Shown piece after piece: positions 7,751 through 48,165 of a stretch of 64,000 nt of DNA (the first letter of the stretch is position 1; each line of letters begins with the position of its first letter). The translations under genes were made by a program, and so were the position numbers. This DNA is from Eledone cirrhosa (lineage: Eukaryota). The notes below the pieces were generated by a model that did not search any database, had not been told where the DNA came from, and saw nothing but the letters and a program-made list of their open reading frames with translations. The stretch is taken from contig OZ024748.1 of assembly GCA_964016885.1 (NCBI GenBank), positions 39,928,001-39,992,000 on the forward strand, given 5' to 3'.

Positions 7751-8031
7751 TCAAAAGACACGTCAGGGTGAGTATCGAACCCAGGAAACTACGATCACTA
7801 ATCAATCGGAATATCATATAAGCTATTATATAAACTGAATAACTTAGAAAAGTTATGCCAGAAAAAGAGGTCAGATGTTGCGCAAATATCTTACATAATT
7901 ACAGAGATTCTTTTTACAACGTATTAATAAATGTGTTCCACACCTATCCCTGTTTTTATATACCCTACACAGACACCTATATATTAGTGTGCGTAATGTA
8001 GACGTATAATATAATATATACATATACATAT

Positions 8032-8097
<66 letters not shown>

Positions 8098-8100
<3 letters not shown>

Positions 8101-11100: not shown

Positions 11101-13270
11101 AAAGTTGGAGAAAAAGGACGAAATGTGCACTTACCTTTTCGTTTCCTGGAGATCGGGTTGTTCAATCTCCATTTGGGTGCTGGATGGGGTGTTGGGTGGG
11201 GTGGGGAAACATTTTAACAGGACGCGGTTGATGGGTTTGTGGCAGGGGTTGCTCACGTCCTGTGAAAATTTAAGTTTTAGGTCTTTATAGGTTTCCATAG
11301 AAACCCTTATAAGTTTAAGGTGTGGAGACGATTCTGCCTTGACGAAAGTTTTGACCTCCGTCTCCACCTTGGGGTTTGGGGAGATGACCTCCATCAAACT
11401 CTTGTTGTTTGTGTTGATGTATGCGTATTGTTGTTTGTGTTTTTGTTGTGTTGATGTATGCGTATTGTTGTTTGTGTTTTTGTTGTGTTGTTTTAGTTTG
11501 TTGTTCATCCGGGAGTTTTCTTTTTATGGTGGGTGCTTGTGTTTGGGGTGGTGTTGGTGCTGGTTTTGCTGATAGGGGGATGTTTGACTGTGGTGTTGTT
11601 TGTGTTGTTGTTTGTGTCTGTGGCTGTGTGTTGGTGTTGGTGATTGGAGTTTTTAGGGTTTTGTGGTGTCTCCTTTTTTGTTGTTTAGATTTCCGCGGTT
11701 CTCCCTCTTCTTCACTTAAAGAAGGAGAAGCAGCTTCATCCGTCGATGAATAATCATCGTCAGGTGTGTGGGGTAAGGGTATGTTGTGTGCTGGTGGTGT
11801 TTCGGTATGTGTGTTTGTGGTAGTGTTTGATGGAGTGGGATGGAGTGTGGATGTGTTCTTCAGGGGTGTTGTCTCTGTTTTTTTCTGTTGTTGTTGGTTG
11901 AGTGTCTGTTTGTTTTGGTGTGGTTGCTCGTTTCGTCTGTCGTTGTACTTGTGGTGGTGGTGGTTGTTTTGGTGTTGGTGTTGGTAATAGCGTTTTTTTT
12001 ATGATGTTGTTGTTGTGTGTTTGTGGACAAGAGGCTTTTGGGTGAGCTGTGCTACCACAGCGAAAGCATTGAAATGTTCGTCCTTCTACCGAAATGTTTA
12101 TTTTGTTGTTATTATCAATAACGACACTTTCGGGTATTTTGGAGATTCTCTCCGGTTTCATTTGCAACAGAATCTCCAAATCTGTGTCCGCCCACCTTTG
12201 TCGAATAGATTTTCGTATTGAAAGTATCATATCTGTTTCTGGCTCTACGAAGCCAGCCAAGATCCACCAGATGTTAATGTTTGGAGGTATGTTTTTTATT
12301 TTTATTTTTTGTGTCCTTTTCCCCATGTATGTAGGGAAAAAGGTGTATGCTTTTGACACCATTGGTGTCACAGAGTTTTTTGGGGCGAGTGCCTCGCTTT
12401 TAAACAGTACGGAAACACTTCCGTACTGTTTTCCTCGCTGGAGAAAATCGACATTTGCTAGAATTTCCTTGAAAGTATCTTCTATATCTGCTTGATTAAC
12501 AAATTTCGGCTTTCTTGTCGAATTTGACACAGTCCTAAAAGTGACTGATCTGCGGATTGTGTCTTCCTTTATTTCAAGGGGTTAGTTAATTCTGAACCCA
12601 CCTCTTTCTTCGAAAGTTACAAATTTTCTCCCTTACTGGAACATATCTCTTGCGTTGGAGATATCAAGATTTATAAAATCTTGTTTTTTGTTCACTGTTT
12701 CAGGGAAAGACATTTTCTTTTTTTGTGTGGTGTTGCTGTTGATGTTGTTGTTATCGTTGTTGGAAATCTCAGTTCCTTGTCGAGATGAAACTTTATGTGT
12801 AGATGTATCTGTAGAGTTGTTGATGTCTTTTTCATGTGTATGTATGTCAATGGGTTTAATTGCTGTGTTTTCCTGTGTGTTATTGATATTTTTCTCAGCT
12901 TCGACGGTAGAAATTTTAAAATTTTCAAGTGTTAAAATATTTTTCTCTTTGGTGACAGTTGTATCTATGGCGACGTCCATAGTAGCAGAAGCAGATATAA
13001 CGTTAATATCTGCCTCTTTCTCTCTCTTTTCTCTATTAACGTTGTCCAGCGTTCTTGTGTTGCTCAAGTTATTTACTTTGTAAAATCTGATATTTTAAAA
13101 CAAATTTTTAAAATAAAATTTTCGCCCCTGCAAGGGCGAAAAATGGGATTGCCTCCCAGCTGACAATTCAGGTTGGGGGTTAATCTACAAAATAATGTTT
13201 TTTCAAACAATTAGTTCGGTTTTTTGCATAGAAATTAACAAAAAAGCTTACCGGCGATGTTCTACACGTC
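8098..13270 (-). mobile_element. Tx1/L1-clade non-LTR retrotransposon, near full length but with frameshifts, stops and an internal deletion
   Basis: ORF1 pieces 12633-13067 and 11760-12530 (zinc knuckle CFRCGSTAHPKASC). APE endonuclease 10610-11089 (TVNVRG, ITES, VYAP) and 9875-10450 (SDH, GPGYWKLN). RT 8961-9685 (RQGCPLS, YADD, GGLGMP). C-terminal CPRC..ETVLHAIVHC in 7977-8957. The 3' end abuts (TA)n. Confidence 0.92.
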
Positions 13271-13297
13271 AGACAGAAAGAGAGATAGGTAGATAGA

Positions 13298-20546: not shown

Positions 20547-22325
20547 CTTTGAGTCTCAGTCATTGATGTTATTTAACTGGAAAGTTTGTTGAAATGAATA
20601 TCAAGCCGCTACCTGCAGCCTCAGATATTCAGGACGTATTGGAGGGTTCTTGCTGTTCCCAGCAAGCATGCCTTTTGAAGTGTTCCAAAAAGCGGGGCTG
20701 GACTAATCTTCTTTAACCATCCTTGGAAACTCTTTGAGATAGTACCTAGTGCGCCTATGACAATCGGGACGACCTTGATTTCATGGCAGTTCCAAATCCT
20801 TTTTAACTCTCACTTTAAGTCCTGATATCGGTTAATTTTCTCCCTCTCCTTTTCTTGTACTCTCGTGAAAAATGGGCAGGCTACATCTACAATCAGGCAC
20901 GATCTTTTTTCCTTGTCCAAAACCACCAGGTCAGGTCTGTTGTGTTCTAATTTCTTGTCCGTCTGTATCCTAAAATCCCACAGCACCTTCACCTGATCGT
21001 TTTCTATCACCGACTCTGGCTTATGCTCATGCCACTTCTCAGAATGTGGTAAATTGTTTCCTTTGTATAGATGCCAGTGGATCACCCTGCCCATCACATC
21101 ATGTCTCCAGCCTTTATAGTGAGTCTGGGCTTGGTGTTTACACTCGGATACAATGTGAGTCTCAGTCTCCTCTCTCTCCACAGATCCTACACATTGGACT
21201 AGCCTCCTTGTAAATATGGCGTTTCACCCACTTCGTTCTGAGGGCCTGCTCTTGCGCAGCCATTAGCATTCATTCTGTAGATTTTTAAGGTCTCCTCTTT
21301 TTAACCAGTTCCATGTCTGTGGATCTCTAAATTCAGTTTTCCTAAAGAAGGTACTATGAAGGGATATTTCATGAAGGTTGCTCTTCCTCCTTGTTGTTAT
21401 TTCCTCCTTGGACATCTCCTGGTCTATTGTCTTCTCCTTCAGTACAATTTTGAGCATTGGCTCCTTACTGTCAGTCGCGTATTTGTGCAGGTTGTATTTC
21501 TCCATCTGAACACAGTCCTCTATGCTGATAAGACCTCTTCCACCTTCAGATATCCTTAAGTCGAGTCTATCGACATCACTCCTCTTGTGGAACATGTTGT
21601 AGATAGTCAATAGCTTCCTAGTCTTTCTATCCATTTCTTTTTGTTCAGCAACATTCTATTTCAGAATAGACACAGCTCGGGAATTCACTGCACTTATGAC
21701 ATTCCTACTGTTCAGGTGTGACTTTAATACGCTCCTTACTCTCCTTATGTACTCAGATCTTATCAATTCCTTCATTTTTTTGTTCTTGATGTCATCTGCC
21801 TCCAGAACACCTAAATATTTGTATCCTTCTTCAGTGTCAATTTCCTTTATCATCTCATCTGTTGGTACCTGGATTCCGTTGCTTCTGCTCAATTTACCCC
21901 TCTTCATCACTAGGACTCCACACTTATTAATACCAAATTGCATACATATATCATTGCTGAAAATACGGACAGTGTCAACAAGCACATCCAACTCCTTCTC
22001 ACTCTTCCCGAAGAGCTTAAGTTCGTCCATGAAGAGGAGGTGATTGATGGTAAGCTCTCCTTTTCCCAACTTGTATCCTGCTCTCACTTTTCGCAATATA
22101 ATGGTCAGGGGTATCAAGGCAAGGACAAACAGCAGAGGGGACAAACTCTCTCCCTGGAAGATACCTCTCTTGATCTTCACGCCTCCCAAGGATTCTCCAC
22201 TCGATGTTAACTCTGTTTCTCAGGACTTCATACTTTTGCTCAACAACTGTCTGATGTTATCTGCCACCTTGAAGATCTCTAGGCTTTTGGTGATCCAAGA
22301 ATGAGGTACCATGTCGAATACCTTT
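20547..22325 (-). mobile_element. R4/Dong-type non-LTR retrotransposon (RT + restriction-like endonuclease), 5'-truncated and degenerate
   Basis: RT motifs GIFQGESLSPLLF and HLLFMDELKL; GGRGL; ETETHIVSEC; RHD; LWDFRIQTDKKLEHNRPDLVVLDK..IVDVACP (PD..D nuclease); LLGTA terminus. The 3' end runs into a (TAA)n tract. Confidence 0.85.
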
Positions 22326-22552: not shown

Positions 22553-23955
<1,403 letters not shown>

Positions 23956-23987
23956 CGTGTATATATATATATGTATATATGTATATA

Positions 23988-24087
<100 letters not shown>

Positions 24088-24088
24088 C

Positions 24089-24121
<33 letters not shown>

Positions 24122-24129
24122 CATACATA

Positions 24130-24734
24130 CAGGGGTTGGACAAAATAATGGAAACACCTAGCATCATAGAATTATAATTTTGAAATATCTATAAAACCGT
24201 CAAAAGCTTGTTTATTTTTATTGTTCTCGAGGTGGTCATTAATTCTGGTAGTAATTTTGGTAGTAATTTTGGTAGTAATTTTGGTAGTAATTTTGGGAGC
24301 TGTACTTTTGTGATCCTTTCTAACAATTCGCGTAAGAGTCCGACGGTATCTATCTGAAAGTTTTGGTTTTCTTCCGGAGTTTTGTTTCGACGAGGAGGTT
24401 TTTCCCTCTTTCTCAAAGACTGTCATTACTTTCGAGACAGTACTTCTTGATACACCAAACATTTCGGCTGTTTTCGTTACACTAGCGCCTGCCATACGAG
24501 CACCAACAATTTGACCTCTTTGAAAGTCCGATAGATCTGTCATTTTAAGGAATTTTAATTACCTTTTTCTGATGATATCTGGAGAGAAACAGCAATTTTA
24601 ACAAATCATATTAAGCAACACTAATAATAAATATAAAAAAACATAAAAATAAACAATCTTTTGACGGTTTTATAGATATTTCAAAATTATGATGCTATGA
24701 TGCTAGGTGTTTCCTTTATTTTGTCCAACCCCTG
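24130..24734 (-). mobile_element. Internally deleted Tc1-family DNA transposon
   Basis: ~95-bp TIRs (CAGGGGTTGGACAAAATAA... / ...TTATTTTGTCCAACCCCTG) with TA on both sides. ORF 24172-24543 encodes a Tc1 paired-like HTH N-terminus (LSDFQRGQIVG..., SGRKPKLS); no DDE domain. Confidence 0.92.
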
Positions 24735-24777
24735 TATATATATATATATACATAATGTATAATATATATACATAATG

Positions 24778-24816
<39 letters not shown>

Positions 24817-24877
24817 GTATATATATATACATAATGTATAATATATATATATATACATAATGTATAATATATATACA

Positions 24878-25062
24878 TAATTGTTTCTACTTTTGACACA
24901 AGGCCAGCAATTACCCAGTACATTACTGGTACTTTATTTTATCGACCCCGTAAGGATGAAAGGCAAAGTGAACCTCGGCGGGATTTGAACTTAGACTATA
25001 AAGGGCCATAACTCTATGCTACAAAGCATGGTGTCCGACTCTCTGCTGATACTGCCAATCCA
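24878..25062 (-). mobile_element. tRNA-derived SINE
   Basis: Reverse complement of the family core plus head. Confidence 0.85.
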
Positions 25063-25069
25063 CATAATG

Positions 25070-25168
<99 letters not shown>

Positions 25169-25175
25169 ATGTTTA

Positions 25176-25211
<36 letters not shown>

Positions 25212-25223
25212 TTAATATAGATG

Positions 25224-25274
25224 AGATTCTACAGGACTAGAACTGTTTCATTCATAAGAAATCATCAGGAATCT
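25224..25274 (-). ncRNA. Hammerhead ribozyme-like motif (type I)
   Basis: Minus strand reads agattc-CTGATGA-tttcttatgaat-GAAA-cag..ctg-TA-gaatct: 6-bp stem I, stem III, GUA triplet. The stem II closing pair is non-canonical. Confidence 0.55.
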
Positions 25275-25579
25275 GGGTATCAAAAAATAAATATGGTATT
25301 TATAGGTCTCTACAAGTGGTAGGAGAGGGTGGGGAGTGGGATGGGTGCAGGTCATTGGTTGATAGAAAAGGGAATTCATTAAAAGCTAATTCTACAAAGC
25401 TATAATTTATTTTTATTTTTATTTATATTTATTTATGTTTTTAGAGTAACAAAGGCAGACAGAATTCTATAAACAGGTTCCGGATGGCATACCATTCCTT
25501 GTCGATAAGTTTCTCTTAAGCTAACAGGTGTCTATAAAATCAGTGGGGGGTCAGTCATGGTCGATAGAATTAAAGAAAT

Positions 25580-25650
<71 letters not shown>

Positions 25651-25654
25651 TATG

Positions 25655-25834
<180 letters not shown>

Positions 25835-25880
25835 GTGACGAAACATAAGTCAATTGCATGAACTCATAATCCTTTATTTA

Positions 25881-25934
25881 CTGCTATATATATTTCGATG
25901 ATAGCCATTGAGTGGTTATGACCTCATCAGGCAC
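25881..25934 (-). ncRNA. Minimal hammerhead ribozyme-like motif
   Basis: Minus strand reads tgc-CTGATGA-Ggtcataacca..tggctatcatC-GAAA-tatatata-gca, with a palindromic stem III. Confidence 0.6.
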
Positions 25935-26003
25935 TTAGTAAGTTCTTAGATATGCCACCTCTGTGCTTATGGTGTTGATTGTATCAGAGCCTTGGGGCAT
26001 ATC

Positions 26004-26050
<47 letters not shown>

Positions 26051-26108
26051 ACATAATGTATAATATATATATATAATGTATAGCTATACACTGTATATAT
26101 AATCATAC

Positions 26109-26162
<54 letters not shown>

Positions 26163-26164
26163 CA

Positions 26165-26313
26165 TATTCCAGCATAGCTACGTCCGTTAACGATCTTAGT
26201 TCAAATCCCGACGAGGTTGACTTTGCCTTTCATCCTTACGGGGTCGATAAAATAAAGTACCAGCAATGCACTGGGATAATTGATGGCCTTGTGCCAAAAG
26301 TAGAAACAATTAT
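26165..26313 (+). mobile_element. tRNA-derived SINE, truncated
   Basis: Family core present. Confidence 0.82.
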
Positions 26314-26327
26314 TACTATATATATAT

Positions 26328-27160
26328 ACTAGCTGAGGTACCCGGTAATACCCGGGAGCGGGAGTATTCCCAGTTCCCATTAAAATGCCCAATGCCTCTC
26401 AGACTAAAAATGAAATACAAATATACGACAGATAATCAAAAGCGAAGACAAATTCATTTACGAAACAATAATACAAACAAATATTGTTGATTACATTGGT
26501 CAGGTGAAAATATGTTCGTCAGAGAAGTTGAGTGATGCTATAAATAAACAAATAGAACCCCATTAGGGTGTCTCAATATTATTGACATTTGCTGAAATTT
26601 TGTGAATAGGTATCATATCTTGTCATTTACCTATGATTTAAATTTCATATAAATCGAAGGGAAAACATTTTCAGTGGGGGTTTTCAACGGGGTTTTGTGC
26701 CCCTAGGGACCCTTTGATTAAAATGAAATATACTTATCGAAGTACCCTGGGCAATGTAGTTTTAAAATATATATGGTTATGGGGGTCTATCTCCAAAAGC
26801 ATAGGAGGAGTTCGTGAAATCTTGTTCCATTTATTGGCCAAAATGTTCACTATAGGGGGTTTAACCCCCAATAGGGTGTCTTAATATTATTGAAATTTGC
26901 TGAATTTTTGTGAATAGGCATCATATCTTGTCATTTACCTATTGTTTAAATTTCTTATAAATCGATGGGAAAAAATTAAGCGGGGGTTTTCAGCAGAGGT
27001 TTGAACACCCGGGGAACCCTTTGATTAAAATGAAATATACGTAAGAAATCAAATGGGCATGAGCCCCCACACACGTGTCAAGCTACATCAAGATCCGTTT
27101 GTTAGTTTTTGAGTTTTAGGTTCACAAACAAACAAACAGAGAGAAATTGCCATTTATATA
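26328..27160 (-). mobile_element. Non-autonomous Helitron-like element
   Basis: Minus-strand 3' end: CCCGG-gtatta-CCGGG hairpin shortly upstream of CTAG|T. Internal ~300-bp-period tandem duplication. Partial copy at ~37630-37880. Confidence 0.65.
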
Positions 27161-27184
27161 TTTATATATATATATATATATATA

Positions 27185-28270
27185 TCTATATATACTATAA
27201 AGCTAACGGCCGTATGTATGTAACAAACTTTTCGCCAAACGGCTGGACCAAACAGCACCAAATTTGCACTATAGATGTAACTTTTTCCAAGTAAAAAGGT
27301 GAGGGTATTTTTGTCTACTGAATTTTGTTAAAAGATTAAAGACATTATTTAAATATTCACTTCTTTAAAATTTCAAATGTCAACACTTCCTGTTATACGA
27401 CATTCCTCACTTTTTTTCGTCGCACAACATTCCCCTCTTTTTCTTAGTCTGTCTTTTTAGATAGATATAGGGCTATAACGTAGCGTCTTTATAATATGTC
27501 TCTGTATGTCTGGCTGTCTGTATTAGATAACGTTTTTCGAAATATTTACTTCTGGGTTCACAGATTGATTTTTTTTAGTTTCAGAAGTTAAGGGTGAAAG
27601 CCTTTGCTTAAACATTGTTATTTTAATATATATATTCGTGTACAGATATTTTGCATACACAAAAACAAAAACCTATTTATTTCACTAAAGCACAGACGGC
27701 TTATCGTCATTGTTACTGTTCGAGGTTAGAGGACCACAGTCTTTCCAAGATCTGAGAACCATCAATAGCCATCAATGTTCCACTTACCGTTTGGCTTGCC
27801 AGATGCGTGGTTTGTTACACGATGACACCTATTGGCACCTCACCCTGCAAGAAGCAGCAACTGCTAAAGTCCCTTCTCAGCTGCGAAAACCTTTTGCTAT
27901 TATGCTGCACAACTGTGATCTCGCCACCCCGAAAGTCTAGTTGAAGACATCCTCCACCGCACACGCAGATACAATCCGAGCGTAACATACGATGTCGTTT
28001 TCAATGAGGCGCTCATCTGTCTTGAAAACAGTGTCCTGGAGATTGGTGGTAGGCTTCTGAGTCACTACAGCTTACCTACTCCTGACAGGAGTGTCCTGAG
28101 GTCAATGTCTACAGAGCTTCTCCGCGAGACGAGCTACGAGATCAGTGCTTCTCCAGTGGTCAATTGTATGTAGGATGCTCTAGGGTGAGCTCGCCAAACA
28201 ATCTCTTCATCTTTGCTCCGGAGGGCCGAACAAAAGATATTGTAAACTCTGAGGCTCTAACAATGTAATT
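27185..28270 (+). mobile_element. Helitron remnant with deleted Rep/Helicase coding pieces
   Basis: Starts with TC. ORF 27710-27940 LLFEVRGPQSFQDLRT...TYRLACQMRGLLHDD...LQEAA...PSQLR is a characteristic RepHel linker. A QLYVGCSR-like helicase C-terminal motif lies near 28160-28185. Confidence 0.8.
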
Positions 28271-29149
28271 TAAATATTTTCTGTTACTTGGAATTTTCAT
28301 TTTGGTTGTACAAATTATTGTTTGTTAAAAAATGTGTTCTCTGTTCAGCCTTTATTGTTGTAACTCTCAATTATCTTTAACGTACTGGCTGCTGAACTGG
28401 GGAATCCTAAAACTATTCAAACCCAACAATCATTTGGATAGTGAAAGAAAAAGAGAAAAATTTCAAATCTTTTATGAGGGATATGCAAATGAAGTAGAAG
28501 GGTAGACTGAAAATATCGTTATATTTAGACGCCAGGTACATTTAAATAATTATTAGGATACTTTATAAAAGAAGATGAAGCAGAAGAAGGAAGAAAGATA
28601 GGCTCATATTATTATTAGGGTGCAAGTAGATTTAAAAATTTAAAATGTGTTGAAGTGGTAGAATACTAAACCAAAAAGTGTTCAATATATAACCAAATCA
28701 TGAGTTATAATATATATATAATGTATATAATTATATTTTAAGGAATTAAGGTTGTAGGTACACTTTAGCTTATTATATTGCAACCAGTCAATTTAGCTTA
28801 TTATATTGAAACCAGTCAAATTAGCTTATTATATGGAAACCAGTCAATTTAGCTTATTATATTGCAACCAGTCATTATATACATATTTATATAAATAGAT
28901 AAAAATATATACATGCTGTTATTAATTCAAATATAATTTAAGGGTTACGAAGGATATGTGTTTACATTTTCAATATATAGTTAAGAAAAAAAAGTCCAAG
29001 ATGGCACGGATGGGGTGGTCAGGAAGGAGACGTCCATACCATAATGCCAATGTAAGACAGTAGCTATTGTCATTTTATCGTGTCAGTTGATATTACGTTA
29101 AATATAATTCCGGTTTTATCTGTGATTTACTGATATAGCTTACGTCAAT

Positions 29150-29555
29150 TGTTTCTTCTTCGTCCAGTTATTTCTGAGAGGGTCGTGGGGTCAGAGTCCT
29201 CCAACACTCCTTCCAGCAAGTCATGTCAGAAGCAACCGTTTCCAACTGATCCGGCTGGATCTCCCAAGCATGACCAGCCAAGCTCATGGATCTTAGCAAA
29301 CCATCTTACTCAGGGTGGGTCGATCCCTGGGTTTCTTGTCGGTTTGTTTTGCCCGTAAAATCTGTCCGGTGATTCTTTCCTGAGACAATCTAACCACATG
29401 TCCATAGTATCAGAGCTGTGATCTCTCAATTCGGAGAAGTAGCGGCTCTACCTGGAGTAACTCTCTGATCTCAGAACTACGCACTCTATCGAGTAACATT
29501 ACTCCAAAGACCCTTTAGAGGAATCCCATTTCGGCCGCTTGTATTGTTTCTATTT
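29150..29555 (-). mobile_element. RTE-clade LINE 3' fragment
   Basis: Homologous to the fragments at 32830-33630 and 38770-39010 (GR.R..W, W....L..LP.RP terminus). Confidence 0.6.
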
Positions 29556-29609
29556 ACGAAATAACACAACTGAGGATTTTAATAGTGTCAAATTTTCGTT
29601 TCTTTTCAG

Positions 29610-31107
29610 TTCCGACTTTATCGAACCATTTAAAATACATATTGTAGAGAACATAAAGATCAATAACCGTAACGACAGATTAATTGCTCTCGAGAAAGCT
29701 GACTACAACATCTTTAAATTACAACCTGAAGATGTCATGATCGATTTCCTTACAGATGCTGGCACTAATGCTTTCAGTCTTGAACAAAACGCAAGAATAT
29801 GGATGGGTGATGAAAGTTATGCCGGATCTACTAGTTATGAAACTTTGAAAGACACGGCAACATATATTTCTGGTTTTGAAAACATTCTGCCAGTTTTTTC
29901 TGAATGTATCAGCGAAGAGATTGTCGCTTCTTATTTCACAAAAGCTGGAGATAAGGTTATTGGGAATACTTTTACTTATTCACTTGAGAACCATATAAAG
30001 GATCTTCATGCTGAAGCGATTTCTTTGTTAGATTGGTCAGATAATAATTTTGCAGGAAATCTAGATGTTCAAGCACTCAAAAACTTATTGGCAGAAAATG
30101 ATAAAAAATCAATTTCCTTTCTTATAATGAATGTACCAGCAAAAAGTAGTGGTGGCCAACCAGTTAGTATGTCAAACATGAAAGCAGTTTCTGATCTCTG
30201 TCGCGAACATTCGATTCCGATATACATCGAAAGTAGTATGTATGGTGAGAACTGTTGGCTCAATAAAATGTACGAAGAGGCTTACTTCAATAAATCGTTA
30301 GTTGAGATATCGCAAGAAATGTTTTCTTTTTTCGATGGCTGCATTATTTCTGCTAAAAGAGATGGTAGAAGTGAGATTGGAAGTGTCATTTGTCTTCAAG
30401 ACAAAGAAATGACTCGAAAATTGGGCACTGTTATTACTCTTAAAGCAGGTTTCATAACTTATGGTGGGATGGCTGGCCGAGATATGGAAATGGTAGCGGT
30501 TGGCATGCGAGGTGCTTTGGATGAACAACTGCAAGACTATCGACAAAAACAATTGGCATTTTTCAAAAGATCCCTGAAGGAATTTGGTGTTCCGATTGTG
30601 GAGCCAGTCGGTTGTAATACCATCTTCATTGATGCTGAAAATGCTTTTCCTAACTGTAAACACGCGTTTTATCCAGCCTGGTCTTTATCTTGTGCTGTTT
30701 ATATCGTCGGGGGTATCCGATGCGCAGAGTTTGGTCAAGTTACTCGTCCAACAAGCAGCTTACCCACTAATCATTTTCTGAAAGACCGAGAATTACTAAA
30801 GCTTGAGATACCTCGTTTCATCTATACGACTTGTCACATTTTCTATGTTGCCTATGTTTTCGCTCAGCTTATTTCACATGAAATGCTTTCTGGAATGAAA
30901 CTTATTGCCTGCTCCGAAGACCAAATAAAACTCGTGAAAATAAAAATGAAACCAAATCATTCTCTGGAATATGACGATATCCAACTCCTTCCGGTACAAG
31001 ACTGTGAACACATTCACTTCTTTAAAAACATATCTAATCAAAGAGTTATGAAAAGAAATTCAATCGCCGAGGCATCTTCTATATGGTCAGTCGACATTCC
31101 TTCTTAA
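29610..31107 (+). CDS. Exon A: tryptophanase/tyrosine phenol-lyase-family domain, predicted PLP-less, retaining the trans-acting Tyr motif
   Basis: Uninterrupted ~1.5-kb ORF with EPFKI, IDFLTDAGT, GDESYAGS, GGQPVS, GFITYGGMAGRDME, GGIRCAEFG and IPR..YT. Polypyrimidine-AG acceptor (ttttcgtttcttttcag) ends at 29609. No ATG start: the ORF-track start at 29539 is a TTG inside an RTE relic. SAKKD is replaced by SAKRD. Possible donor at 31086. Confidence 0.85.
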
Positions 31108-31301
31108 AAAGGGGACAAACACGTTAGATAATGTAATCGTAGACACAAAAAAGACGTGGTAGTCATGATTGGAACGTCCCTGATCATAGAATTGCTCTGT
31201 CAATGTTCACCTGAACTTAAACAACAGCAACAACAACACAGAGATTTTTTTTGTTGCACCCAAACAGGATTCTGTAAATTCTAGATTGTACATTCTTTTA
31301 T

Positions 31302-31442
31302 TCTTTTACTGGTTTCAGTCATTAGACTGTGGCCATGCTGGGGCACTGTTCTTTTACTGGTTTCAGTCATTAGACTGTGGCCATGCTGGGACAGTGGTCT
31401 TTTACTGGATTCAGTGATTCTACTGTGGCCATGCTAGGGCAC
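31302..31442. repeat. ~48-bp tandem repeat x3 (CTTTTACTGGTTTCAGTCATTAGACTGTGGCCATGCTGGG...)
   Basis: Visible tandem units. Confidence 0.8.
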
Positions 31443-31640
31443 CAATTGATTGTTAGTTTGTTTTTTTTAATTGGTTTTATTCCCAACAATTAAACTATTG
31501 AACATGATTTTGAATAGAAAGTAGGGGAAAACATTGACAGTCTTGTCAAATATAGTTTTAATATTATGTTAACAAAAAAAGGAAATAAAATATCTTTGGA
31601 AACTTAAATATATTTCTTGTGATGTTCTTTTTACAATTAT

Positions 31641-31922
31641 TTCACCAATATATAATTAATATCAAACATTGTGATGTATGTTTCACCAATATATAATTAA
31701 TAACAAACATTGTGATGTATGTTACACCAATATATAATTAATATCAAACATTGTGATGTATGTTACACCAATATATAATTAATATCAAACATTGTGATGT
31801 ATGTTACACCAATATATAATTAATATCAAACATTGTGATGTATGTTTCACCAATATATAATTAATATGAAACATTGTGATGTATGTTTCACCAATATATA
31901 ATTAATATGAAACATTGTGATG
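31641..31922. repeat. 41-bp minisatellite x~7
   Basis: Unit TTCACCAATATATAATTAATATCAAACATTGTGATGTATGT. Confidence 0.9.
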
Positions 31923-32829
31923 TGGTTGTGATAATTCGGGGAAAGATGGTACAACGAATATTAGATAAACTAAGGTGAAAAGATACGACAAATCAGCATT
32001 TTAAACTTTTGTCTTATATTTCTTGATATTTTGAGGTGAAAAACTTTTTTCAAAAGAAAGAAATGGAGTCTGGTGTTGTCAACGCCCAAAGAATTGTTGA
32101 TAAACGATTTATTTACATCAACTTATTATTGATGGTGACATGCTTTTGTTTCACTTTAAAAAAATATTATAATAAGGTGACATACTAATATAAATATTAT
32201 TTTAAAAATAAAAAACAAATCTTGAAACATCTTATGACTGTGGCAGTGGCAAGGTTTATAGAGTTAAGAAGCCTCACAACCATCTGATTTCCGGTTCCTT
32301 TAGACTACATGGCATCTTAAAGAAGTGTCTTTCTGCCATAGGTTCGAGTCAACAAAACGGACAGTTTGCCCTTTTCAGCTTGGCGGGCAGCAGGGCCTGG
32401 ACTGGTGGTGGAATGCACCAGGTTGGTACTTGCAATTAATTGTAATATAACTGATAGATGTTGTTTCAATTCTGTGCCATTAATTGTAGATCAACGACAA
32501 CATTGTTGCAGTAGTTATTTCAATTCTGTGCCATTAATAATCTGTGTTACGAACACTACATAAATAGTCTACAGGTGTTACCTTGATTTCACCAGATGGA
32601 AATATCAAAATCAAAATTGATTATGTAATTGTTCCAAACAATATTCTCGAAATGGTGAAAAACTGCCATGTGTATATTTCTACAGATATTGGTCTAGAAT
32701 ATTTCAACTTAGAGACTGGAAAACACAAACGTTATTATCATAAATGTACTGTGATTGTGTAAGGCTTAATTATTAAAGATTGTAAGATCCATTCCCAGTG
32801 AATTGGTCAAACTATATCCAAGAATTTTC

Positions 32830-33630
32830 TTTTTCTTCCTTCACTTATTCCTGGGAAGGTCGTGGGGGAAGAGTCTTGAAACACTCCTTCTAGCAGGTCC
32901 TGTCAGAAGCAACCATCTCCAACTGATTTGGCTGGATCCCCAAGCGATACCTGCCAAGCTTATGGATGTTATCCAACTATCTTGCTCAGGGTCTACTCCT
33001 GGGTCTCCTGCTGGTTGGTTTTGCCAATAAAATCTGTCCAGTATTTCCTTGGACATTCTAGCCATATAATATGTAATATCAGAGCTATGATTTCTCAATT
33101 CGGAAAAGTATCAGTTCTACCAGGTGTGATTCACAAGTCTCCAAGCTACACACACTATCGAGTAATGATACTCCAAATACCCTTTTGGAGGAACCCCATT
33201 TTGGCCACTTGTATTTGCGATTGTATTCTTTCAGTCATTACACAAGATTCATGACCATAGGTAAGGGTTGGCACGAAAACCGAATTGAAGATAGTGAGTT
33301 TGGTGTTTACACCTACCTCCCTTCTTCTGATTACCAAATACCAAAGCTGTCACATTACTGCGGCAGCTCCTGCAATTATTGCACTTAATTCGGCCTCCTG
33401 CCTTCCATCACTCGTGACCATGGCCCTGAGATACTTGAACTTCTCTACCAACTTCAGTAGAACTCCCTTCGCATGTAGAATGCACTGCGCAGGCTTCCTT
33501 TAGAAGACGAGTGTCTCAGTTTTCACAGCACTGAATTTCATTCCAGCCATGCATCACTCTGCATCAAACCTATCAAGTGCAAGTCAGAGATCACCTTTTG
33601 TTGAGTTTGTAACACCATGTTGTCTGCAAA
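32830..33630 (-). mobile_element. RTE-clade LINE 3' portion (degenerate)
   Basis: KFKYLR, TKLTIFNSVFVPTLTYGHES, ..QVAKMGFL motifs on the minus strand. Confidence 0.75.
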
Positions 33631-33721
33631 TTCCAGCCACAAATTGCTGGCCATGTGCCTAAATTAGAAAACCTTATTCCTGCAAAAGGTCCTGTTAATC
33701 CTTAATTATTATTAAATATAG

Positions 33722-33976
33722 CATATATACAAACTGGAGCTGTGTCAGGGACCAGTCCGCAAACATATATACAAACTGGAGCTGTGTCAGGGACCAGCCT
33801 GCAAACATATATACAAACTGGAGCTGTGTCAGGGACCAGTCCGCAAACATATATACAAACTGGAGCTGTGTAAGGGACCAGTCCACAAACATATATATAA
33901 ACTGGAGCTGTGTCAGGGTCCAGTCCGCAAAAATATATACAAACTGGAGCTGTGTCAGTGACAATGTCTGCAAACA
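33722..33976. repeat. 42-bp minisatellite x~6
   Basis: Unit CATATATACAAACTGGAGCTGTGTCAGGGACCAGTCCGCAAA. Confidence 0.9.
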
Positions 33977-34301
33977 ATGAGTTGAAAATTTTAACACCAA
34001 GAAATATATGATAAATAAAAACTACAGTTAACAGATTTTTGTGTTTTGAATTACTAAAGTGACACGTGTACAATGTAATTGGTATATATATATATACTCT
34101 CTCTATATGTATGTGTTTTTATATAAATATGTAAATATTTGTGTGTATATATATATATATTGTTGTTATATAGTAAGGTGTATTATTGGTTGTGTCATAC
34201 GGTCCAATAAACTTTTGTTAGCAATATTAAGTTCTCCACGCTTTTGTATATCTCCAATTCCATTTAAGGGAACAGCTAGATGATGTAAAACGGAGTATTT
34301 G

Positions 34302-35881
34302 TATCAAAATAAAGATCCGAAAGCATGGTATAAATTTCCAATCATTTTAATCACAACACGTTTCAATAAGGGATAGATCGATCGTGTGGTCATGATCGAT
34401 TATCACTGATTTCATCATTCTTAACTGAGCGTGTAATACGTCTATTTACTAACTGAGAGAACTCTATGGTTAGGGTATTCTAAACCTTCCTCAGGATTTT
34501 TGGAAAGTAACCTACCACTAACTGCCCCCTTTTTACCTTAGCCATAGAGTTCTCTCAATTAGCAAAAAATAGACAATCACACACTCAGGTAGTAGACAGC
34601 TAAGATCGTTTGCGCACCTACACACTGTACTCGGTGTGTTTCCACAGAGTTCTCACAGCTGAGTGCATATTTACCATTACTTTAGAATACCTAGTTAGTA
34701 AATAGTTAGAACAATTACACTCGCAGTTAAGACCGATTACGCGCATTCACCATTACTTTAGAATACCCTAACCATAGAGTTCTCTCAGTTAGTAAATAGA
34801 CGTATTACACACTCAGTTAAGAACGTTACGCTCTTTATACATAATTCTACACAGTACCCGGTTTCTTTAGACACAGAGTTGCCACAGTTATGACCAGTCA
34901 TGATCTTGTCGATTGAATACTACACTAGGTTTTGGTCTGTGATCCTCTAACCAAGGAGTGCTCACAGTTTGCTGAATGGACAATACTACTTACACGCCAT
35001 CAATGGACTTACACACATCCCCGGGGTTTTATTTTATTTTGTGTTGGGTAACACACCTCCACCACTCAAACACTTATCTTAAAGGCCCGAGGGAAAACGC
35101 ACACACTGACACCTTAACTCAAATACCCAACCCTACATGGAGCCCCTTGTTGGCCTACATGGCAGGTGCTTGCACGCACAGACTCGGGGACCCAGATTCT
35201 CAACGGGACAACGGCACATATAGAGTTCGATACGAGCTGACTACTTGCTCTACACATGGATTTGTATATACCAAAACATACACTATTTAGACGATACAGA
35301 TGTTACAATTCAATCGATACACGTATAGCAGAACGTTGAAGGGAATTTACTTGCGTGTGTATAGTGTTGTGGTTGACCCAATTTTTTTCTAATTTACATC
35401 GTGAAAATTGAGATTTGACCAATATAACGTTTGTTGTTTTGTAACCTAACTTTTGGTGCATACTGTGTTGCTGTGTATATTTTTTTTTCTCTGACCTCGC
35501 GTCGGTGTGTGTGAGTGTGTGTGCACTCAATAACACTAATTGTGACGGACCAAAATTCTACAGATCTGGTGCTGAGATTAGACCTGTCCAGCGTCTTTTA
35601 CAGCTATTGAGAGATAGAGACTTGATAGATTTATGACCCTGACTGAAGACAATAGCAGTTGGCGTGTTTTGGCTGCTGATTATTCATATGGGGAACAAAA
35701 CTCCAGTGAGTGAACATCGTTAGTTTTTCCTCCCTCATATCAAAGATTTCAAGACATTTCATTATTCACCTGAGATCAGTGATAATCGATCATGACCACA
35801 CGATCGATCCCTTATTGAAACATGTGTCGTGATTAAAATGATTGGAAATGTATACCATGCCTTCGGATCTTTATTTTGATA
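34302..35881. mobile_element. Non-autonomous TIR element (MITE-like, ~1.6 kb) between exons A and B
   Basis: ~110-bp inverted termini TATCAAAATAAAGATCCGAA... (34302-34413) / ...TTCGGATCTTTATTTTGATA (35770-35881). A further internal inverted pair lies at ~34418-34485 / ~34757-34823. Confidence 0.75.
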
Positions 35882-35918
35882 TATATATATAAAACTGAAT
35901 TTACATTTTTTTTTCCAG

Positions 35919-37308
35919 TCTCCAAGCAATGGAACCTTACAGGATTAAGGTATTTTATCCAGTCAATTTAATCCCCAAGTCTGACCGTATTGCATGTCTA
36001 AAAGCTGCCAACTACAACCCCTTTCTACTTAAATCGAAAGACATATTTATAGATTTGCTAACAGATTCTGGTACAGGAAGTCAAAGCAGTGCCCAGTGGT
36101 CGGCTATGACTAAAGCCGGCTATTCAACTATTAATTCCGAATACGTTAAGGAATTTGTACGTACAATTCAACACATTACCAATTTCAAACATGTATTTCC
36201 AGTTCATCAAGGTCGAGGAGCCGAAGGTTTGTTGGCAAAACTCCTACTGAATAAAGAGAGTGTTGTACTGAGTAATTCTCTCTTTGACACAACACGAGCA
36301 CACGTTGAGTCATCTGGTGCAATTGGAATAGATTTGGCAACAAAGTCTTCAAAATTCTTAGGTGATGCCGATGTGGAAAAATTTGAAGAAACACTGGATG
36401 AATATGGTTCTAGAGTTCATCTTGTAATAATAACCTGCACCAATAATGTGGTAGCCGGAGCTCCTGTGAGCATGCAAAATATAGAAATCATAACAAAATT
36501 ATGTCGAAACAAGAATATCCCAGTTATAATGGACGCATGCCGTTTTGTTGAAAATGCTTATTTTATCAAGACCTTAGACGAAAAATATTCTAAACACACA
36601 ATCTTAGATATTGCCAGCGAAATGTTTTCTTATTTTGATGGTGCAACTATGTCTTTAAAGAAAGATGGTATGAGCAATGAAGGTGGGTTTATAGCTTTCA
36701 ACAACGACAAATGGGCCACCAAAATATTTGACATAATCGAATATAAAAGTGGTTATTCAACTTACGGGGGAATAACTGGATCAAATCTTGTAGCATGTAC
36801 TGTCGGAATTTCTGAGGCTATGAACGAAAATTACCTCCGATCAAGAATCTATCAGGCTAAATTACTGGCTGATTTCTTGGAAGATAATAATATTCCCGTA
36901 TTTAAACCAGTAGGGGCCCATGCCGTCTACGTGAAAGCAAACAAAGTCTTGCCACACCTTGATTTCTTGAAGTATCCAGCATGGTCCCTTAATTGTGCCG
37001 TATATATCGATGGTGGTATTCGATGTGCAGAAATTGGCAATATAATGTTTGGTGAAAATTCAGATGGAACAAAACAAATTCATCCCTTTGAATATGTGCG
37101 TTTGGCTTTACCCAGAAGAACCTATACGGTCAACCATCTGCATTTTGTGGCCAAAACTTTTGGTTTTGTTGCCAAAAAAGCCCATTTAATCCACGGAATG
37201 GAAATTGTCAAATCTTCGCATCTCCTAAGACATTTCACAATTTGGATGAGACCATTAAATGAATACCACCTTGAAAAGAATAATAATCAGAAAAAAATAA
37301 ACTGTTGA
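35919..37308 (+). CDS. tnaA: Exon B: tryptophanase (tryptophan indole-lyase)-like domain with intact PLP site but no GDExY motif
   Basis: MEPYRIK, IDLLTDSGT, HQGRGAE, SNSLFDTT, MDACRFVENA, MSLKKDG (PLP Lys codon 36661-36663), TYGG, GAHAVY, GIRCAEIG, VRLALPRRTY, LRHFT. FDTT, EIG and LRHF are the TnaA-type rather than TPL-type (FTTT, ERG, LRFF) residues. Acceptor tttttttttccag ends at 35918; an in-frame ATG is at 35929. Confidence 0.9.
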
Positions 37309-43619: not shown

Positions 43620-46600
43620 AAAAGACAGCGAGAAGCGAAAACCAACCAAACAGTGAGTGTGTTCTGTTATTAATTCTGGCAATATTACGCAAATATGACC
43701 CTCCCCAAATATAACAATATCTGTTTCGACACACGATTTCATATAAAAAACCTCGCAAAACTAATTCATCGCCGCTATGGCATTAGCTTGTGCCAAGCTG
43801 AAAGGTTATTGAAAGACACTGTTTTCTGTTATATAAAAACTACAATAACAACAGAACAAATCCGCTTCTTAAAACACTGTTTCCTCCAAAACATACACAA
43901 CAAACATATCAAAACAAGTAAATAATTTATTATTGAACAAAACACAAGCTGAACGGCTAAAACACACAATAACAGTTAATATGAAAAGAACAACATACAC
44001 AAAAGTCAACGCACTCTACAGACAAAAACGCGTCAACGGTAAGGAAATCCGAAATCTCATCACAGCAAACGAGAGAGATGACTTCATGAGCGTCATCCGA
44101 CGCGAAACGAAATATGCTCAAAACGAATGCTGTAGGCATTTCAAGAAGAAATTAGAATGGATGAATAAGAAAAAACTACAAGAAAGGAAAATCGAATATT
44201 CTCAAAAATACCCAGATAACATCGACAACATCCGTATGAGTGATGTAAAACTACCGGAAGAATTTACCAATGACCACACAGTAAATGGGAACACTTTAAT
44301 CAGTGAACAAGAACAACAAATCCTAAAGTTACCACCAAAATTTGCCATCTACAAAAAGATTAACCCTATGGAATGCAAAACGGAGCTGGAAAAGTGTTTC
44401 ACAAAAATACGTTGGAATGCAAAGGTAAACAACAACAACAATAATAACGGTAGTAGTAATATAAACAATAACTCTGGGTATAGAAATAACAGCCATAACC
44501 ATAACAATGGCAGGAAAGTGAGAAATAGTGATAATGGCAATAATACTAGCGATAGACAGAACAACAACAACCACAATAATAATAATAATAGAAACGTTAA
44601 CCACAGACACAGCAACAGTGACCACAGTAGTAATAACGGTAACAATACGAACAACAACAACAACAATAACCACAGTGGTAATAATGGAAATAGTACATGT
44701 AGCAACATCAACAAAAACAAGAAATATAATAATAGTAACAACCACAATGGTAGAAATAGCAGTAACAACAACAATAACGGTGAAGTAAACAACAATACAT
44801 CTAGCAACCATAACAATAATAATATTAATGCTAATGATAGAAACAACAACAACCACCATGATAACAATAATAGCAACACACACAACTATGACGATAGAAA
44901 TAACGACAACCCCTTAGAGAAACTATTCTTCAACCCAGCTGACAAAACATATAAGATGGGTAATATCTATCCTACGAGGTTACCCTTTAATAAAAGAGTT
45001 TGCATACCACAGCAAATAGATGACGAGACGGAGGCACAGTTCACCATAGCTAGAAATAAGATTAGACAAGTAGTAGACAGGTACACTATGAGACAGAGCA
45101 GACCAGAGGCCCAACAACTTGGGATAAAACCTGTAGAAGGCTTGGTTAGCCTCAAGCAGCGCACAAGGGATGGTGAGGTAGTGTGTCTACCCACAGATAA
45201 GTCTGGTAGGATGTCAATAGATAGCATGACGAACTACATCGAGGCAATGCAACCCCACATCACCAACACGAGCGAAGTTGCACAACTAACACACGATGGG
45301 AGAGAAAAAATCCTCAACGCTCACATGATGATGTGGACTGACATCCTAAAGCCAAGCAGACGCACTGCCAACAACTTCCAGGCGTCTAACAATGGCATAC
45401 CACCCTTGTATGGGCTCCGCAAAGACCACAAGACAGTCGACGACCCGACAACAGGACCACCAACAAGACCCGTATGCGGAGCTAATATAGCTAGCAACTA
45501 CAGGATCTCCTACTTCCTCTCAATGGTTATACGCCCCATAATCAAGATGTCCCCAGATGTATGTGAAAGTACAGAGGACCTCCTCAGCAGAATCAGTGAG
45601 TGCAACAAAAACAGGAGCCTATCCAACTGCATAATAGGCAGCATGGATGTGGTGTCACTGTACCCATCCATTAACATTGATTTTGCTGTGAAAAGATGTG
45701 TGGAGATGATCATTGAGAGTGAGGTGGAGTTCTGCGACGTCGACACAGACGAACTGGGCCTCCTACATAGACTTACCTACGACACTGACTACCTAGACAG
45801 CCATGACCTTAGATGTTTCTGCCCTAGTAGACCTATAAGAGGTAGACCCCCCACCATAACCTCAATGGCTAAAAAGACTCCCATAGGAAGGTGGATTGGG
45901 TGGACCAAAGCTATACGGACCCCCCAAAACACTGATCAGGTAAGAAAAATGGTCGCACATGCAATAGGGGCTAGTATCAAAACTACCCTAAAGGGCCACA
46001 TATTTAAGTTCAATGAGAAAATCTACACCCAAAATGAGGGAGCAGCCATCGGCGTCAGCATAGCTGGTGATGTTGCCAACCTTTTCATGGTATGGTGGGA
46101 AAGGAGACTTAAAGATCTCCTTAATGAAAGCTCCATAGACCTCATCATGTTCTCTCGTTATGTAGACGATATCAATATAGTTATAAGAACACCCCCACTA
46201 GAGAGCACTAACAAGTTTGATTTAGAACGTAGCACGATGGAAAGCATCCAGCAGATAGCTAATTCCATACACCAGAGTATAACTGTAACTATAGACTTCC
46301 CTTCCAAACACCCTAACAATAGACTACCTGTATTAGACACAGAACTCTGGATTAACACTATAGACGAGAGAGCCCAAATTCTCCACTCACACTATGCTAA
46401 ACCCATGGCCTCCAAATACCTGATACTCAAAAACTCAGCAATGTCCAGTAGTGCTAAGTTTAATATTCTGATCGCAGATTTGGTACGAGTGATGAAGAAT
46501 GTGTCCAGCATGTGCGACCCAACAGAAATGGAAGGACACATCCAACACTTCATCAACCGCATGCAGTTCTCTGGCTACAACCAAAGAGACAGAGTCAGAG

Positions 46601-48165
46601 TATACGAAGGAGCCATGGAAAAGTATAAGACCCTCATAGAACTGGACATGAAAGGAATTTGCCCACTATACAGGAGCAAATCATGGAATAGCTTAGATAG
46701 GGCTAGACATAAGATAGGGAAGGCCACATCATGGTACGACAACCAGAGATATCAGAGTGTCATGTTTGTGGACGCCACCCCTGGAGGGAAATTAGCTAAC
46801 CAGCGTAGAAAGGCCCTGAGAAAGACCCACTTAAAAATAAAGGTGGTAGAAAAGCCAGGAACCACCATAAATTCCCTGATCAGCAAAACCTTCCCTTTTA
46901 AGAAAACCCACTGTACCAATAGGAAATGTATCATTTGTAAGGTGAACCCCCGGATAAACTGTAAAACTAGAAACGTAGTCTATAGCATAAGATGTACAGA
47001 GGGTACTTGCAGAAACATGACAACAACATACATAGGTGAGACAGCTCGTAGCATAGGTGAAAGGATAGACCAACACTGGAGGGAACTAAAAGGACGAAAA
47101 AACGGGTCAGTACTATACGAACATGCTAGACAACAACATGACGGTAACATAGACAACATAGAAATTAGAATAATATCTAAACATAGGAATGACCCAGCAG
47201 ATAGGCAAATCAGAGAGGCCAGTGAAATAGAAATTAGAAGACCAAAGCTAAACAGAAAGAATGAGTGGAACAACAACAACACCCAAACAAACAACACTGA
47301 CCTAAGAGAAGTATAAATAAGTAAATAAAATTAAATAAAATAAGATAAATAAATACATACACAAGCACATAAACACACACTAGTCACCCAGCAGACACAA
47401 CACTATACACACTAGTCACACATCACACATAACACTATACACACACGCAAACGCATGCGCAAAGAAGACAAAATAAAATAAGATAAACAAACAAGCAAAT
47501 AAATAAATAAATATATAGACAGACTGAACAAAAAAAATGGCGTAGACATACAACACAACAGGAGGAACAATGAATATAACACCACTGACGATGTTGCAGA
47601 TGTGCAACGAAAGATTTATGTAAATTATGTAAACTATATATATGTGTTTGTGTCTATATTGTATCTGTATTATTTTTGACCGCCGGTCAGTCAATGGCAA
47701 CATTGAGGACCGAGTAAGTTAGATCGCAGATTTATATATATAAAAGACAGCGAGAAGCGAAAACCAACCAAACAGTGAGTGTGTTCTGTTATTAATTCTG
47801 GCAATATTACGCAAATATGACCCTCCCCAAATATAACAATATATATATATACATATATATATATACACATATATATAATTTCGAAAAAAATATTGAAAAG
47901 AAGATTTTCTTACAGATCGGAGAAGTCCATGGCTGTTTCTTGTCGGTTTGGCAGATGTTTCGTAGAATTGATGTGATTTATGGTATATCACCTCCCACGT
48001 AAATCTCTTACTTGTCGATCGTGGAATAATTATGTCCTAGATAGATAGCGTGTGTGTGTCTGTCTGTATGTATGTATGTATTGAGGCAGAAAGAAAGAGA
48101 GAGAGGCGATAGAAAAGGGAGGGTTTACGTAACAGTGTAGGATATAGAGAAGGCAATTTTAATAA
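43620..48165 (+). mobile_element. Penelope-like retroelement, near intact, with terminal direct repeat (pseudo-LTR)
   Basis: Direct repeat ~43620-43715 / ~47742-47840 flanks the RT-GIY-YIG ORF. The downstream sequence is shared with the truncated copy at 22.5-23.9 kb. Confidence 0.9.
43933..47316 (+). CDS. Penelope-like reverse transcriptase + GIY-YIG endonuclease (1127 aa open) with a long Asn-rich insert
   Basis: PTDKSG, LYGLRKDHK, PTRPV, MDVVSLYPSI, GAAIG, RYVDD, LPVLD; Cys linker CTNRKCIIC (Neptune/Nematis-like); VVYSIRC...YIGETAR..ER..H, R..RE, LN. The N-terminus probably extended into ORF 43695-43925 and is now interrupted. Confidence 0.92.
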   Translation: MNKTQAERLKHTITVNMKRTTYTKVNALYRQKRVNGKEIRNLITANERDDFMSVIRRETKYAQNECCRHFKKKLEWMNKKKLQERKIEYSQKYPDNIDNIRMSDVKLPEEFTNDHTVNGNTLISEQEQQILKLPPKFAIYKKINPMECKTELEKCFTKIRWNAKVNNNNNNNGSSNINNNSGYRNNSHNHNNGRKVRNSDNGNNTSDRQNNNNHNNNNNRNVNHRHSNSDHSSNNGNNTNNNNNNNHSGNNGNSTCSNINKNKKYNNSNNHNGRNSSNNNNNGEVNNNTSSNHNNNNINANDRNNNNHHDNNNSNTHNYDDRNNDNPLEKLFFNPADKTYKMGNIYPTRLPFNKRVCIPQQIDDETEAQFTIARNKIRQVVDRYTMRQSRPEAQQLGIKPVEGLVSLKQRTRDGEVVCLPTDKSGRMSIDSMTNYIEAMQPHITNTSEVAQLTHDGREKILNAHMMMWTDILKPSRRTANNFQASNNGIPPLYGLRKDHKTVDDPTTGPPTRPVCGANIASNYRISYFLSMVIRPIIKMSPDVCESTEDLLSRISECNKNRSLSNCIIGSMDVVSLYPSINIDFAVKRCVEMIIESEVEFCDVDTDELGLLHRLTYDTDYLDSHDLRCFCPSRPIRGRPPTITSMAKKTPIGRWIGWTKAIRTPQNTDQVRKMVAHAIGASIKTTLKGHIFKFNEKIYTQNEGAAIGVSIAGDVANLFMVWWERRLKDLLNESSIDLIMFSRYVDDINIVIRTPPLESTNKFDLERSTMESIQQIANSIHQSITVTIDFPSKHPNNRLPVLDTELWINTIDERAQILHSHYAKPMASKYLILKNSAMSSSAKFNILIADLVRVMKNVSSMCDPTEMEGHIQHFINRMQFSGYNQRDRVRVYEGAMEKYKTLIELDMKGICPLYRSKSWNSLDRARHKIGKATSWYDNQRYQSVMFVDATPGGKLANQRRKALRKTHLKIKVVEKPGTTINSLISKTFPFKKTHCTNRKCIICKVNPRINCKTRNVVYSIRCTEGTCRNMTTTYIGETARSIGERIDQHWRELKGRKNGSVLYEHARQQHDGNIDNIEIRIISKHRNDPADRQIREASEIEIRRPKLNRKNEWNNNNTQTNNTDLREV

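Follow-up and report, generated by a model that had tools for sequence, protein, structure and literature searches.

In the parts of the papers that we draw on here, bacterial tryptophanase (TnaA) is described as a homotetramer in which every chain carries both the pyridoxal phosphate (PLP) lysine and a tyrosine lent to a neighbor (PMC12980246). In the catalytic dimer Tyr-72* is supplied by the opposite chain and gives its proton to the departing indole (PMC11301627), while E. coli Tyr74 and Tyr307 contact the PLP of the neighboring chain and the activity of Y74F is negligible (PMC2770544). For tyrosine phenol-lyase (TPL), roles have been assigned to Lys257, Tyr71, Arg381, and Thr124 (PMC10170061). 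Outside this family, the trypanosomatid deoxyhypusine synthase DHSc/DHSp went from a homo-oligomer to an obligate heterotetramer, in which one paralogue is impaired and the other dead (PMC3663545). Carriers of tnaA include Octopus bimaculoides, O. vulgaris, and cnidarians, and the part of the survey used here leaves their origin open (Boya 2021, PMC8537960). In this work we analyzed 64,000 nt of the genome of the octopod Eledone cirrhosa (contig OZ024748.1, positions 39,928,001 to 39,992,000 of the forward strand), called the window below and numbered from its first letter, which holds two tryptophanase-fold exons, A and B. The two exons probably belong to one octopod tryptophanase gene with two last exons, whose products A and B are likely to form an obligate heteromer with tryptophan as its predicted substrate. 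The heteromer itself is probably already known from work on cephalopod tryptophan indole-lyases (TILs): Yuasa reportedly found in 2023 that two cephalopod TILs are each inactive alone on tryptophan and together form a weakly active heterotetramer. A and B are orthologous to the two Octopus TIL proteins, and each has disabling substitutions that are absent from the other.

Both exons lie on the + strand, A at 29610..31107, with 31489 and 31584 as candidate positions of its poly(A) hexamer, and B at 35919..37308, with a candidate hexamer at 37569. The stop of exon A lies 4.8 kb before B, and a tblastn search of the window found no lyase exons besides these two. As the original prediction had it, each lyase domain is without an intron, in a single open frame of 498 aa (A) or 462 aa (B). 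Domain searches place both proteins in the tryptophanase/TPL beta-eliminating lyase family: PF01212 gives 128.6 bits for A and 180.6 bits for B (cut-off 27), and PRK13238 gives 398 and 493 bits (curated cut-off 285). Neither protein reaches the TnaA equivalog TIGR02617 (A 279 and B 348 bits against 825.8) or the TPL equivalog TIGR02618 (320 and 382 bits against 720.7). Window A is 75-76% identical to O. bimaculoides XP_014791032.1 and window B 82% to XP_014791033.1, and an ESM Atlas search returned mostly bacterial clusters.

The main biological point of this locus, missed in the original prediction, is the complementary loss of active-site halves. We compared 7 A-type, 8 B-type, and 3 chiton/bivalve-type proteins with 332 other single-domain homologues of 440-490 aa, with positions numbered as in TPL; the numbering was taken off the alignment and verified against a TPL of Pantoea. 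All seven A-type proteins are changed at own-site positions (K257R, N185K, D214E, R217M, H343N, R404K, F123T, and loss of G99) and retain D68, E69, Y71, F288, Y291, and R297. The B-type proteins (8/8) retain Q98-G99-R100, F123, D124, N185, D214, R217, K256, K257, H343, R404, and H448, and are without D68, E69, Y71, and R297. In the window proteins the PLP lysine and the lent tyrosine are not in one chain, A combining K257R with Y71 and B combining K257 with Y71T. Both residue sets are present in all three chiton/bivalve-type proteins, and E69, Y71, and K257 occur together in 331 of the 332 other homologues. When the 12 own-subunit residues named for tryptophanase in PMC11301627 are counted (numbering mapped in this analysis), window B has 12/12 and window A 2/12. 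Because the residues are split in this way, the acid would be missing from a B homodimer and the cofactor from an A homodimer, and pairing A with B would give a dimer with one complete site; since the split holds in every A-type and every B-type protein, an obligate A:B tryptophanase is likely. Glu69 completes the potassium site together with Gly52 and Asn262 of the partner, and hybrid H463F/Y74F dimers are said, in the title of a 2002 paper by Phillips, to rescue activity.

The residues at the substrate side point to tryptophan. The tryptophan type was defined by Asp133 and His458 in P. vulgaris numbering and no Arg at TPL position 381. D124 and H448 are found in 8/8 B-type proteins and I381 in window B, and A does not show these residues. 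The TPL-type Thr124, Arg381, and Phe448 are in neither protein, the corresponding residues being D, I, and H in B and Y, F, and L in A. Since Asp124, Ile381, and His448 of B resemble E. coli TnaA and not TPL, L-tryptophan is the likely substrate.

A structure model of B (residues 1-450) with PLP and A (residues 1-475) is consistent with such a dimer. It scored 0.76 versus 0.36 for the best control and passed a mark that 51 of 78 solved complexes and 2 of 108 mismatches attain; at least 94% of contacts are shared between runs, with a partner predicted local distance difference test score (pLDDT) of at least 86. Among the surest predicted contacts, A Glu68 touches both Asn253 and Gly51 of B, and A Tyr70 touches Gly51 of B. 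The pass may reflect likeness, because solved homodimers exist. Structural knowledge of the family, the model, and the reported cephalopod work together make heteromer formation likely.

Several observations weigh against an obligate A:B enzyme. The complex test makes no comparison with A:A or B:B. Position 291 is Y in 4/8 and F in 4/8 B-type proteins, so the lent face of B is incompletely eroded, and window A carries R100C and H448L, changes at positions conserved in other A proteins. No reversion of R100C or H448L is among the differences listed for the other copies of A, and the C-terminal tail of window A is about 24 residues longer than that of other Octopus A proteins. B might instead need no partner and act as a homo-oligomer on S-substituted cysteines or other substrates that have good leaving groups, with A non-catalytic or regulatory and the heteromer incidental; we consider this improbable. 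Mutants of Tyr71/72 are reported to behave like Asp133Ala on good leaving groups. The whole PLP site is retained in B, and the Asp133Ala mutant stays active on such substrates according to the part of the source that we use (PMC11301627). This explanation does not fit the A-type proteins, which in 7/7 cases across deep branches keep exactly the lent E69, Y71, Y291, and R297 and have lost own-site residues, since the retained residues make sense only if they serve the site of B.

The coding part of the putative leader exon (Met-Asp-Phe-Ser-Asp plus 2 nt; 22814..22830, +) lies 6.8 kb upstream of acceptor A and reads cagcc ATG GAC TTC TCC GAT CT|GTAAG, with the donor GTAAG at 22831. It contributes 17 coding bases and stops in phase 2, one base short of a codon, so that a single T is required from the acceptor. 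Both acceptors had been quoted correctly in the original prediction and supply this T: acceptor A reads ...ttcttttcag|T TCC GAC TTT ATC GAA CCA (AG ends at 29609) and acceptor B ...tttttccag|T CTC CAA GCA ATG GAA CCT (AG ends at 35918). Their equal position and phase are also borne out, both AGs standing 13 nt before the Glu-Pro (E-P) codons, and a single shared leader would account for the identical phase. Of the 8 AGs that precede E-P within 150 nt, the AG of acceptor A has the top pyrimidine tract (13/14); that of acceptor B (12/14 pyrimidines) is 1 of 2 AGs in the same distance, the second lying 5 nt before E-P in a different phase. The predicted intron of product A (22831..29609, +) has 6,779 nt in phase 2 and that of product B (22831-35918, +), which jumps over exon A, has 13,088 nt; GT..AG is read in the sequence of both. 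The joined frames are open over 504 residues for product A, which starts MDFSDLSDFIEP, and 468 residues for product B, which starts MDFSDLLQAMEP.

These joined N-termini match the O. bimaculoides isoforms X1 (XP_014791032.1) and X2 (XP_014791033.1), which both begin MDFSDL, identically over 12 residues, and O. sinensis RefSeq has the same X1/X2 pair with MDFSDL on both. This match, together with the presence of a phase-2 leader upstream, makes the agreement of the two acceptors more than a coincidence. The shared leader is implicit in the RefSeq models. With a leader pattern made from those N-termini (at most 1 mismatch) two matches were found in the window, at 22814 (+) and 47912 (-), with 0.34 expected by chance; under a stricter pattern the 3.0-Gb genome contained 9 matches, every one inside the cluster described below, and the reversed control gave 0. 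The first Met of exon A is residue 43, so product A needs the leader. A and B are likely alternative last exons of one gene, the splicing in E. cirrhosa being read from the models of the orthologues. A search of sequencing runs listed no RNA run containing B, and 4 listed runs of unknown type shared half or more of the words of B. No description of this gene structure was found in the literature searched, a coverage that leaves most subscription journals outside.

The duplication itself is old, because the A and B proteins are 30% identical and no DNA similarity between A and B is detectable around the acceptors; the one DNA match between them, of 66 nt, is inside the coding regions. The proposal in the original prediction that a lyase domain was duplicated together with its acceptor stands, and intron gain before duplication is compatible with the data. 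Its framing of A and B as two tandem genes gives way to one gene with a shared leader, which reads better. Separate tandem genes, with B under its own promoter and ATG and the phase match a relic of duplication, are in our judgement also improbable. Four codons past its acceptor, exon B has an in-frame ATG of its own (GCA ATG G; Met at residue 4), a feature that the original prediction did not mention; it could allow translation without the leader ATG, and UniRef and Argonauta models begin there. The leaders also differ in a sister lineage, where one A protein (P0463) starts MDSANAIYLNEP, unlike the B proteins, which start MNFDELLESMEP or MDFNEMLKAMEP (MNFDEL/MDFNEM); in each of these A and B proteins E-P is preceded by 10 residues. 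Judging by its position in the tree, this lineage is probably squid or cuttlefish, in which separate leaders are possible; because the A and B starts differ there, the shared leader may be limited to octopods. On the same side of the balance, the O. vulgaris A model (CAI9735558.1) carries a different N-terminus, and 4/10 A copies in the E. cirrhosa cluster are without a leader match in about 8.2 kb upstream. Against separate genes stand the MDFSDL start on both isoforms in RefSeq of two Octopus species, the lack of a second leader between A and B in a pattern search of the window (at most 1 mismatch), and six forward leaders in the cluster, each ahead of an A-then-B pair.

The shared-leader gene appears to be amplified. 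A search of the species' own genome gave 23 matches from 25 candidates, which is a lower bound, all on C8 between 39.13 and 40.13 Mb; these at least 23 matches include 10 forward A, 9 forward B, and 2 inverted truncated A. The unit, of which the window holds one, is present about 10 times within 1 Mb (39.12-40.13 Mb), in copies 99.1-100% identical to those of the window. Five units have a leader, an open A, and an open B. One A copy is frameshifted (L108), 3/9 B copies are broken (a stop in L006, frameshifts in L008 and L009), and one A copy has no B within the next 10 kb. The distinct lesions and the inversions among copies argue for real, recent duplications, although an assembly error may play a part. 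The two inverted truncated A pieces come with a leader, and the cluster also holds one orphan inverted leader. Tandem copies are suggested in Argonauta as well by three consecutive models (B, B+A, B), of which the 847-aa B+A "fusion" (P0123) probably reflects the joining of gene models and entered our analysis with its A part alone.

We next consider the origin of the gene. Trees were built from rows hand-picked from search hits, with insects, fungi, and protists outside the sample: a 36-row IQ-TREE (LG+C20, with the N-domains of the bacterial fusions discussed below left out), a 196-row FastTree of diverse representatives, and a 41-row IQ-TREE (C20). In the 36-row tree A and B each cluster with their O. 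bimaculoides and Argonauta counterparts (100/100), and A, B, chiton, and bivalve proteins come together at 100/98; the sister grouping of A and B is weak (83/72) and is unresolved in the 41-row tree. The 196-row tree places 9 further proteins in this neighborhood, 7 of which are a second chiton cluster, Potamilus, two Haliotis clusters, Gordionus, Priapulus, and Nematostella. In the 41-row tree 15/16 animal-type rows form one clade (97/96) in the order Nematostella, Gordionus, molluscs (90/93), in which A and B are accompanied by chiton, bivalve, abalone, nematomorph (Gordionus), and Nematostella proteins; a partial Priapulus protein falls outside with weak support, and the clade sits among bacterial tryptophanases (96/98). 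Because A and B are inside the animal clade, any bacterial transfer would be ancient, far predating the cephalopods. The simplest reading of the trees is an ancient gene of probably bacterial origin that predates the cnidarian/bilaterian split and that numerous lineages have lost; several transfers from related bacteria could also account for them. For the horizontal acquisition proposed in the original prediction, a bacterial source remains probable, at a date long before the cephalopods, the animal clade being in roughly species order; a spread among eukaryotes in species-tree order, which would speak for vertical inheritance, is partly seen in this clade.

Some side observations were made among these animal proteins. 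Several tryptophanase-like paralogues with altered active-site residues are found in Haliotis (P0393, P0398, and cluster members), P0393 being without Tyr71, and these are possibly a separate gastropod diversification. The chiton-like P0257 (compared with P0129) has a hydrophobic N-terminus ending in LLLQ before HDVMEP, which resembles acceptor read-through four codons before E-P; judged from this protein N-terminus, the 5' intron near E-P may predate the cephalopods. In P0395 (Nematostella isoform X2) an internal stretch of the domain is missing near the Asp214 motif, a hint that the cnidarian gene has internal introns; the cephalopod domains are single-exon.

Two-domain bacterial proteins turned up among the homologues of A. 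A genome scan retained 80 of 131 loci, of which 61/80 gave a single open reading frame (ORF) of 840-960 aa under our filter and were analyzed. The fusion N-domains keep E69, Y71, and Y291 in 61/61 cases with K257 mostly replaced by Q, and the C-domains keep K257 and the own-site residues in 61/61; they carry T124 and F448, and their Y71 column is filled mostly by A, P, or T. Both halves group with TPL (100/99; 41-row tree). A clade of A with the fusion N-domains, a grouping suggested by an earlier FastTree, has a log-likelihood lower by 64.5 and is rejected by the approximately unbiased (AU) test (p-AU 0.0016). A and B also differ from the two-domain TPL fusions in being separate exons with a stop between. 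With shared ancestry of A and the fusion N-domains rejected, the active-site split is convergent and arose twice. Bacterial fusions with the same complementary split are widespread (L020-L099; P0128, P0258, P0376-P0415). Among 11 two-domain representatives, P0378, P0379, and P0387 have K257 in both halves and no clean split, and may be intermediates or another type. No title on bacterial two-domain TPL fusions was seen in a literature listing whose coverage lacks most subscription journals.

A recent bacterial transfer into cephalopods, including one from a split bacterial fusion gene, or assembly contamination, is extremely unlikely, for although the homologue lists beyond close cephalopod-type matches are mostly bacterial or without a name and a 76-row FastTree joined A with the fusion N-domains at 0.74, the animal clade holds A and B at 97/96, the AU test speaks against the joint clade, the fusion C-domains are of the tyrosine type (T124/R381/F448) at positions where B has D/I-L-Y/H, and the DNA is that of the host, as the original prediction had argued, in a 60.6-Mb contig with a coding GC of 37% versus 36% for the window and with orthologues in O. 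bimaculoides, O. sinensis, O. vulgaris, and Argonauta. We put the placement of A beside the fusion N-domains in that FastTree down to long-branch attraction, in view of the later trees and the AU test.

The match at 47912 is an orphan inverted leader copy with its upstream DNA (47912..47930, -), after which no lyase exon follows in the window. It is abutted by a 1147-aa ORF (43873-47316, +) that is flanked by a direct repeat (43603-43731/47725-47853); the ORF has no Pfam match and resembles a Penelope-type retroelement in its motifs. An inverted piece of the end of this ORF lies just past the donor of the true leader, at ~23080-23880. LINE-type fragments with RVT_1 and endonuclease matches are found at 7977-15812 (-) and 20810-22219 (-); such matches were confirmed only outside the A-B interval of the window, where the original prediction had placed SINE/RTE/Helitron relics. 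There are minisatellites of 41, 42, and 54 nt at ~31.6, 33.7, and 40.4 kb, and tandem repeats form long arrays in two further stretches, 5.5-7.8 kb and 51-64 kb.

In the proposed mechanism, the leader would be spliced to either exon A or exon B, and the shared promoter would keep both halves co-expressed. A would lend residues to the active site of its partner and B would supply the cofactor site, so that the A:B dimer would have one working site turning tryptophan into indole as well as pyruvate and ammonia. One promoter and one leader could in this way serve both subunits of an obligate heteromer, the splice choice setting their ratio, and amplification of the whole unit about tenfold would lift the dose of both halves together, which may indicate selection for indole production. 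We regard it as quite possible, short of probable, that the split evolved twice with the halves locked to one transcription unit each time, joined in E. cirrhosa by the tenfold amplification of the unit, and that both the splicing design and the convergence are unpublished. If this is true, octopods would have used mutually exclusive last exons of one gene and bacteria a fusion in one chain, and the intact single-chain relatives of chiton and bivalve together with the independent bacterial fusion would form a two-replicate system for the passage from homomer to obligate heteromer. As to annotation, what are listed as "isoforms" X1 and X2 are likely to be partners, and an assay of either alone is inadvisable.

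Compared with known systems, the cephalopod TILs of Yuasa's work of 2023 reportedly show the same mechanism as the one derived here from sequence, and the roughly tenfold amplification of the unit is a feature seen in the E. cirrhosa genome. Bacterial TnaA (E. coli, Proteus vulgaris; EC 4.1.99.1) shares with A and B the fold type I PLP lyase domain (PF01212, PRK13238), and with B the tryptophan-type Asp124, Ile381, and His448; unlike in TnaA, the PLP lysine and the lent tyrosine are on different chains in octopus, and the scores of A and B stay below the equivalog cut-offs. DHSc/DHSp, in contrast to octopus A and B, has another fold and cofactor and is encoded by two separate genes. The bacterial TPL fusions (for example P0258 and P0128) have the same split as octopus A/B inside one polypeptide, with tyrosine-type residues and a place in the TPL clade, and their N-domain, with K257 mostly Q, has lost different residues from those lost in octopus A.

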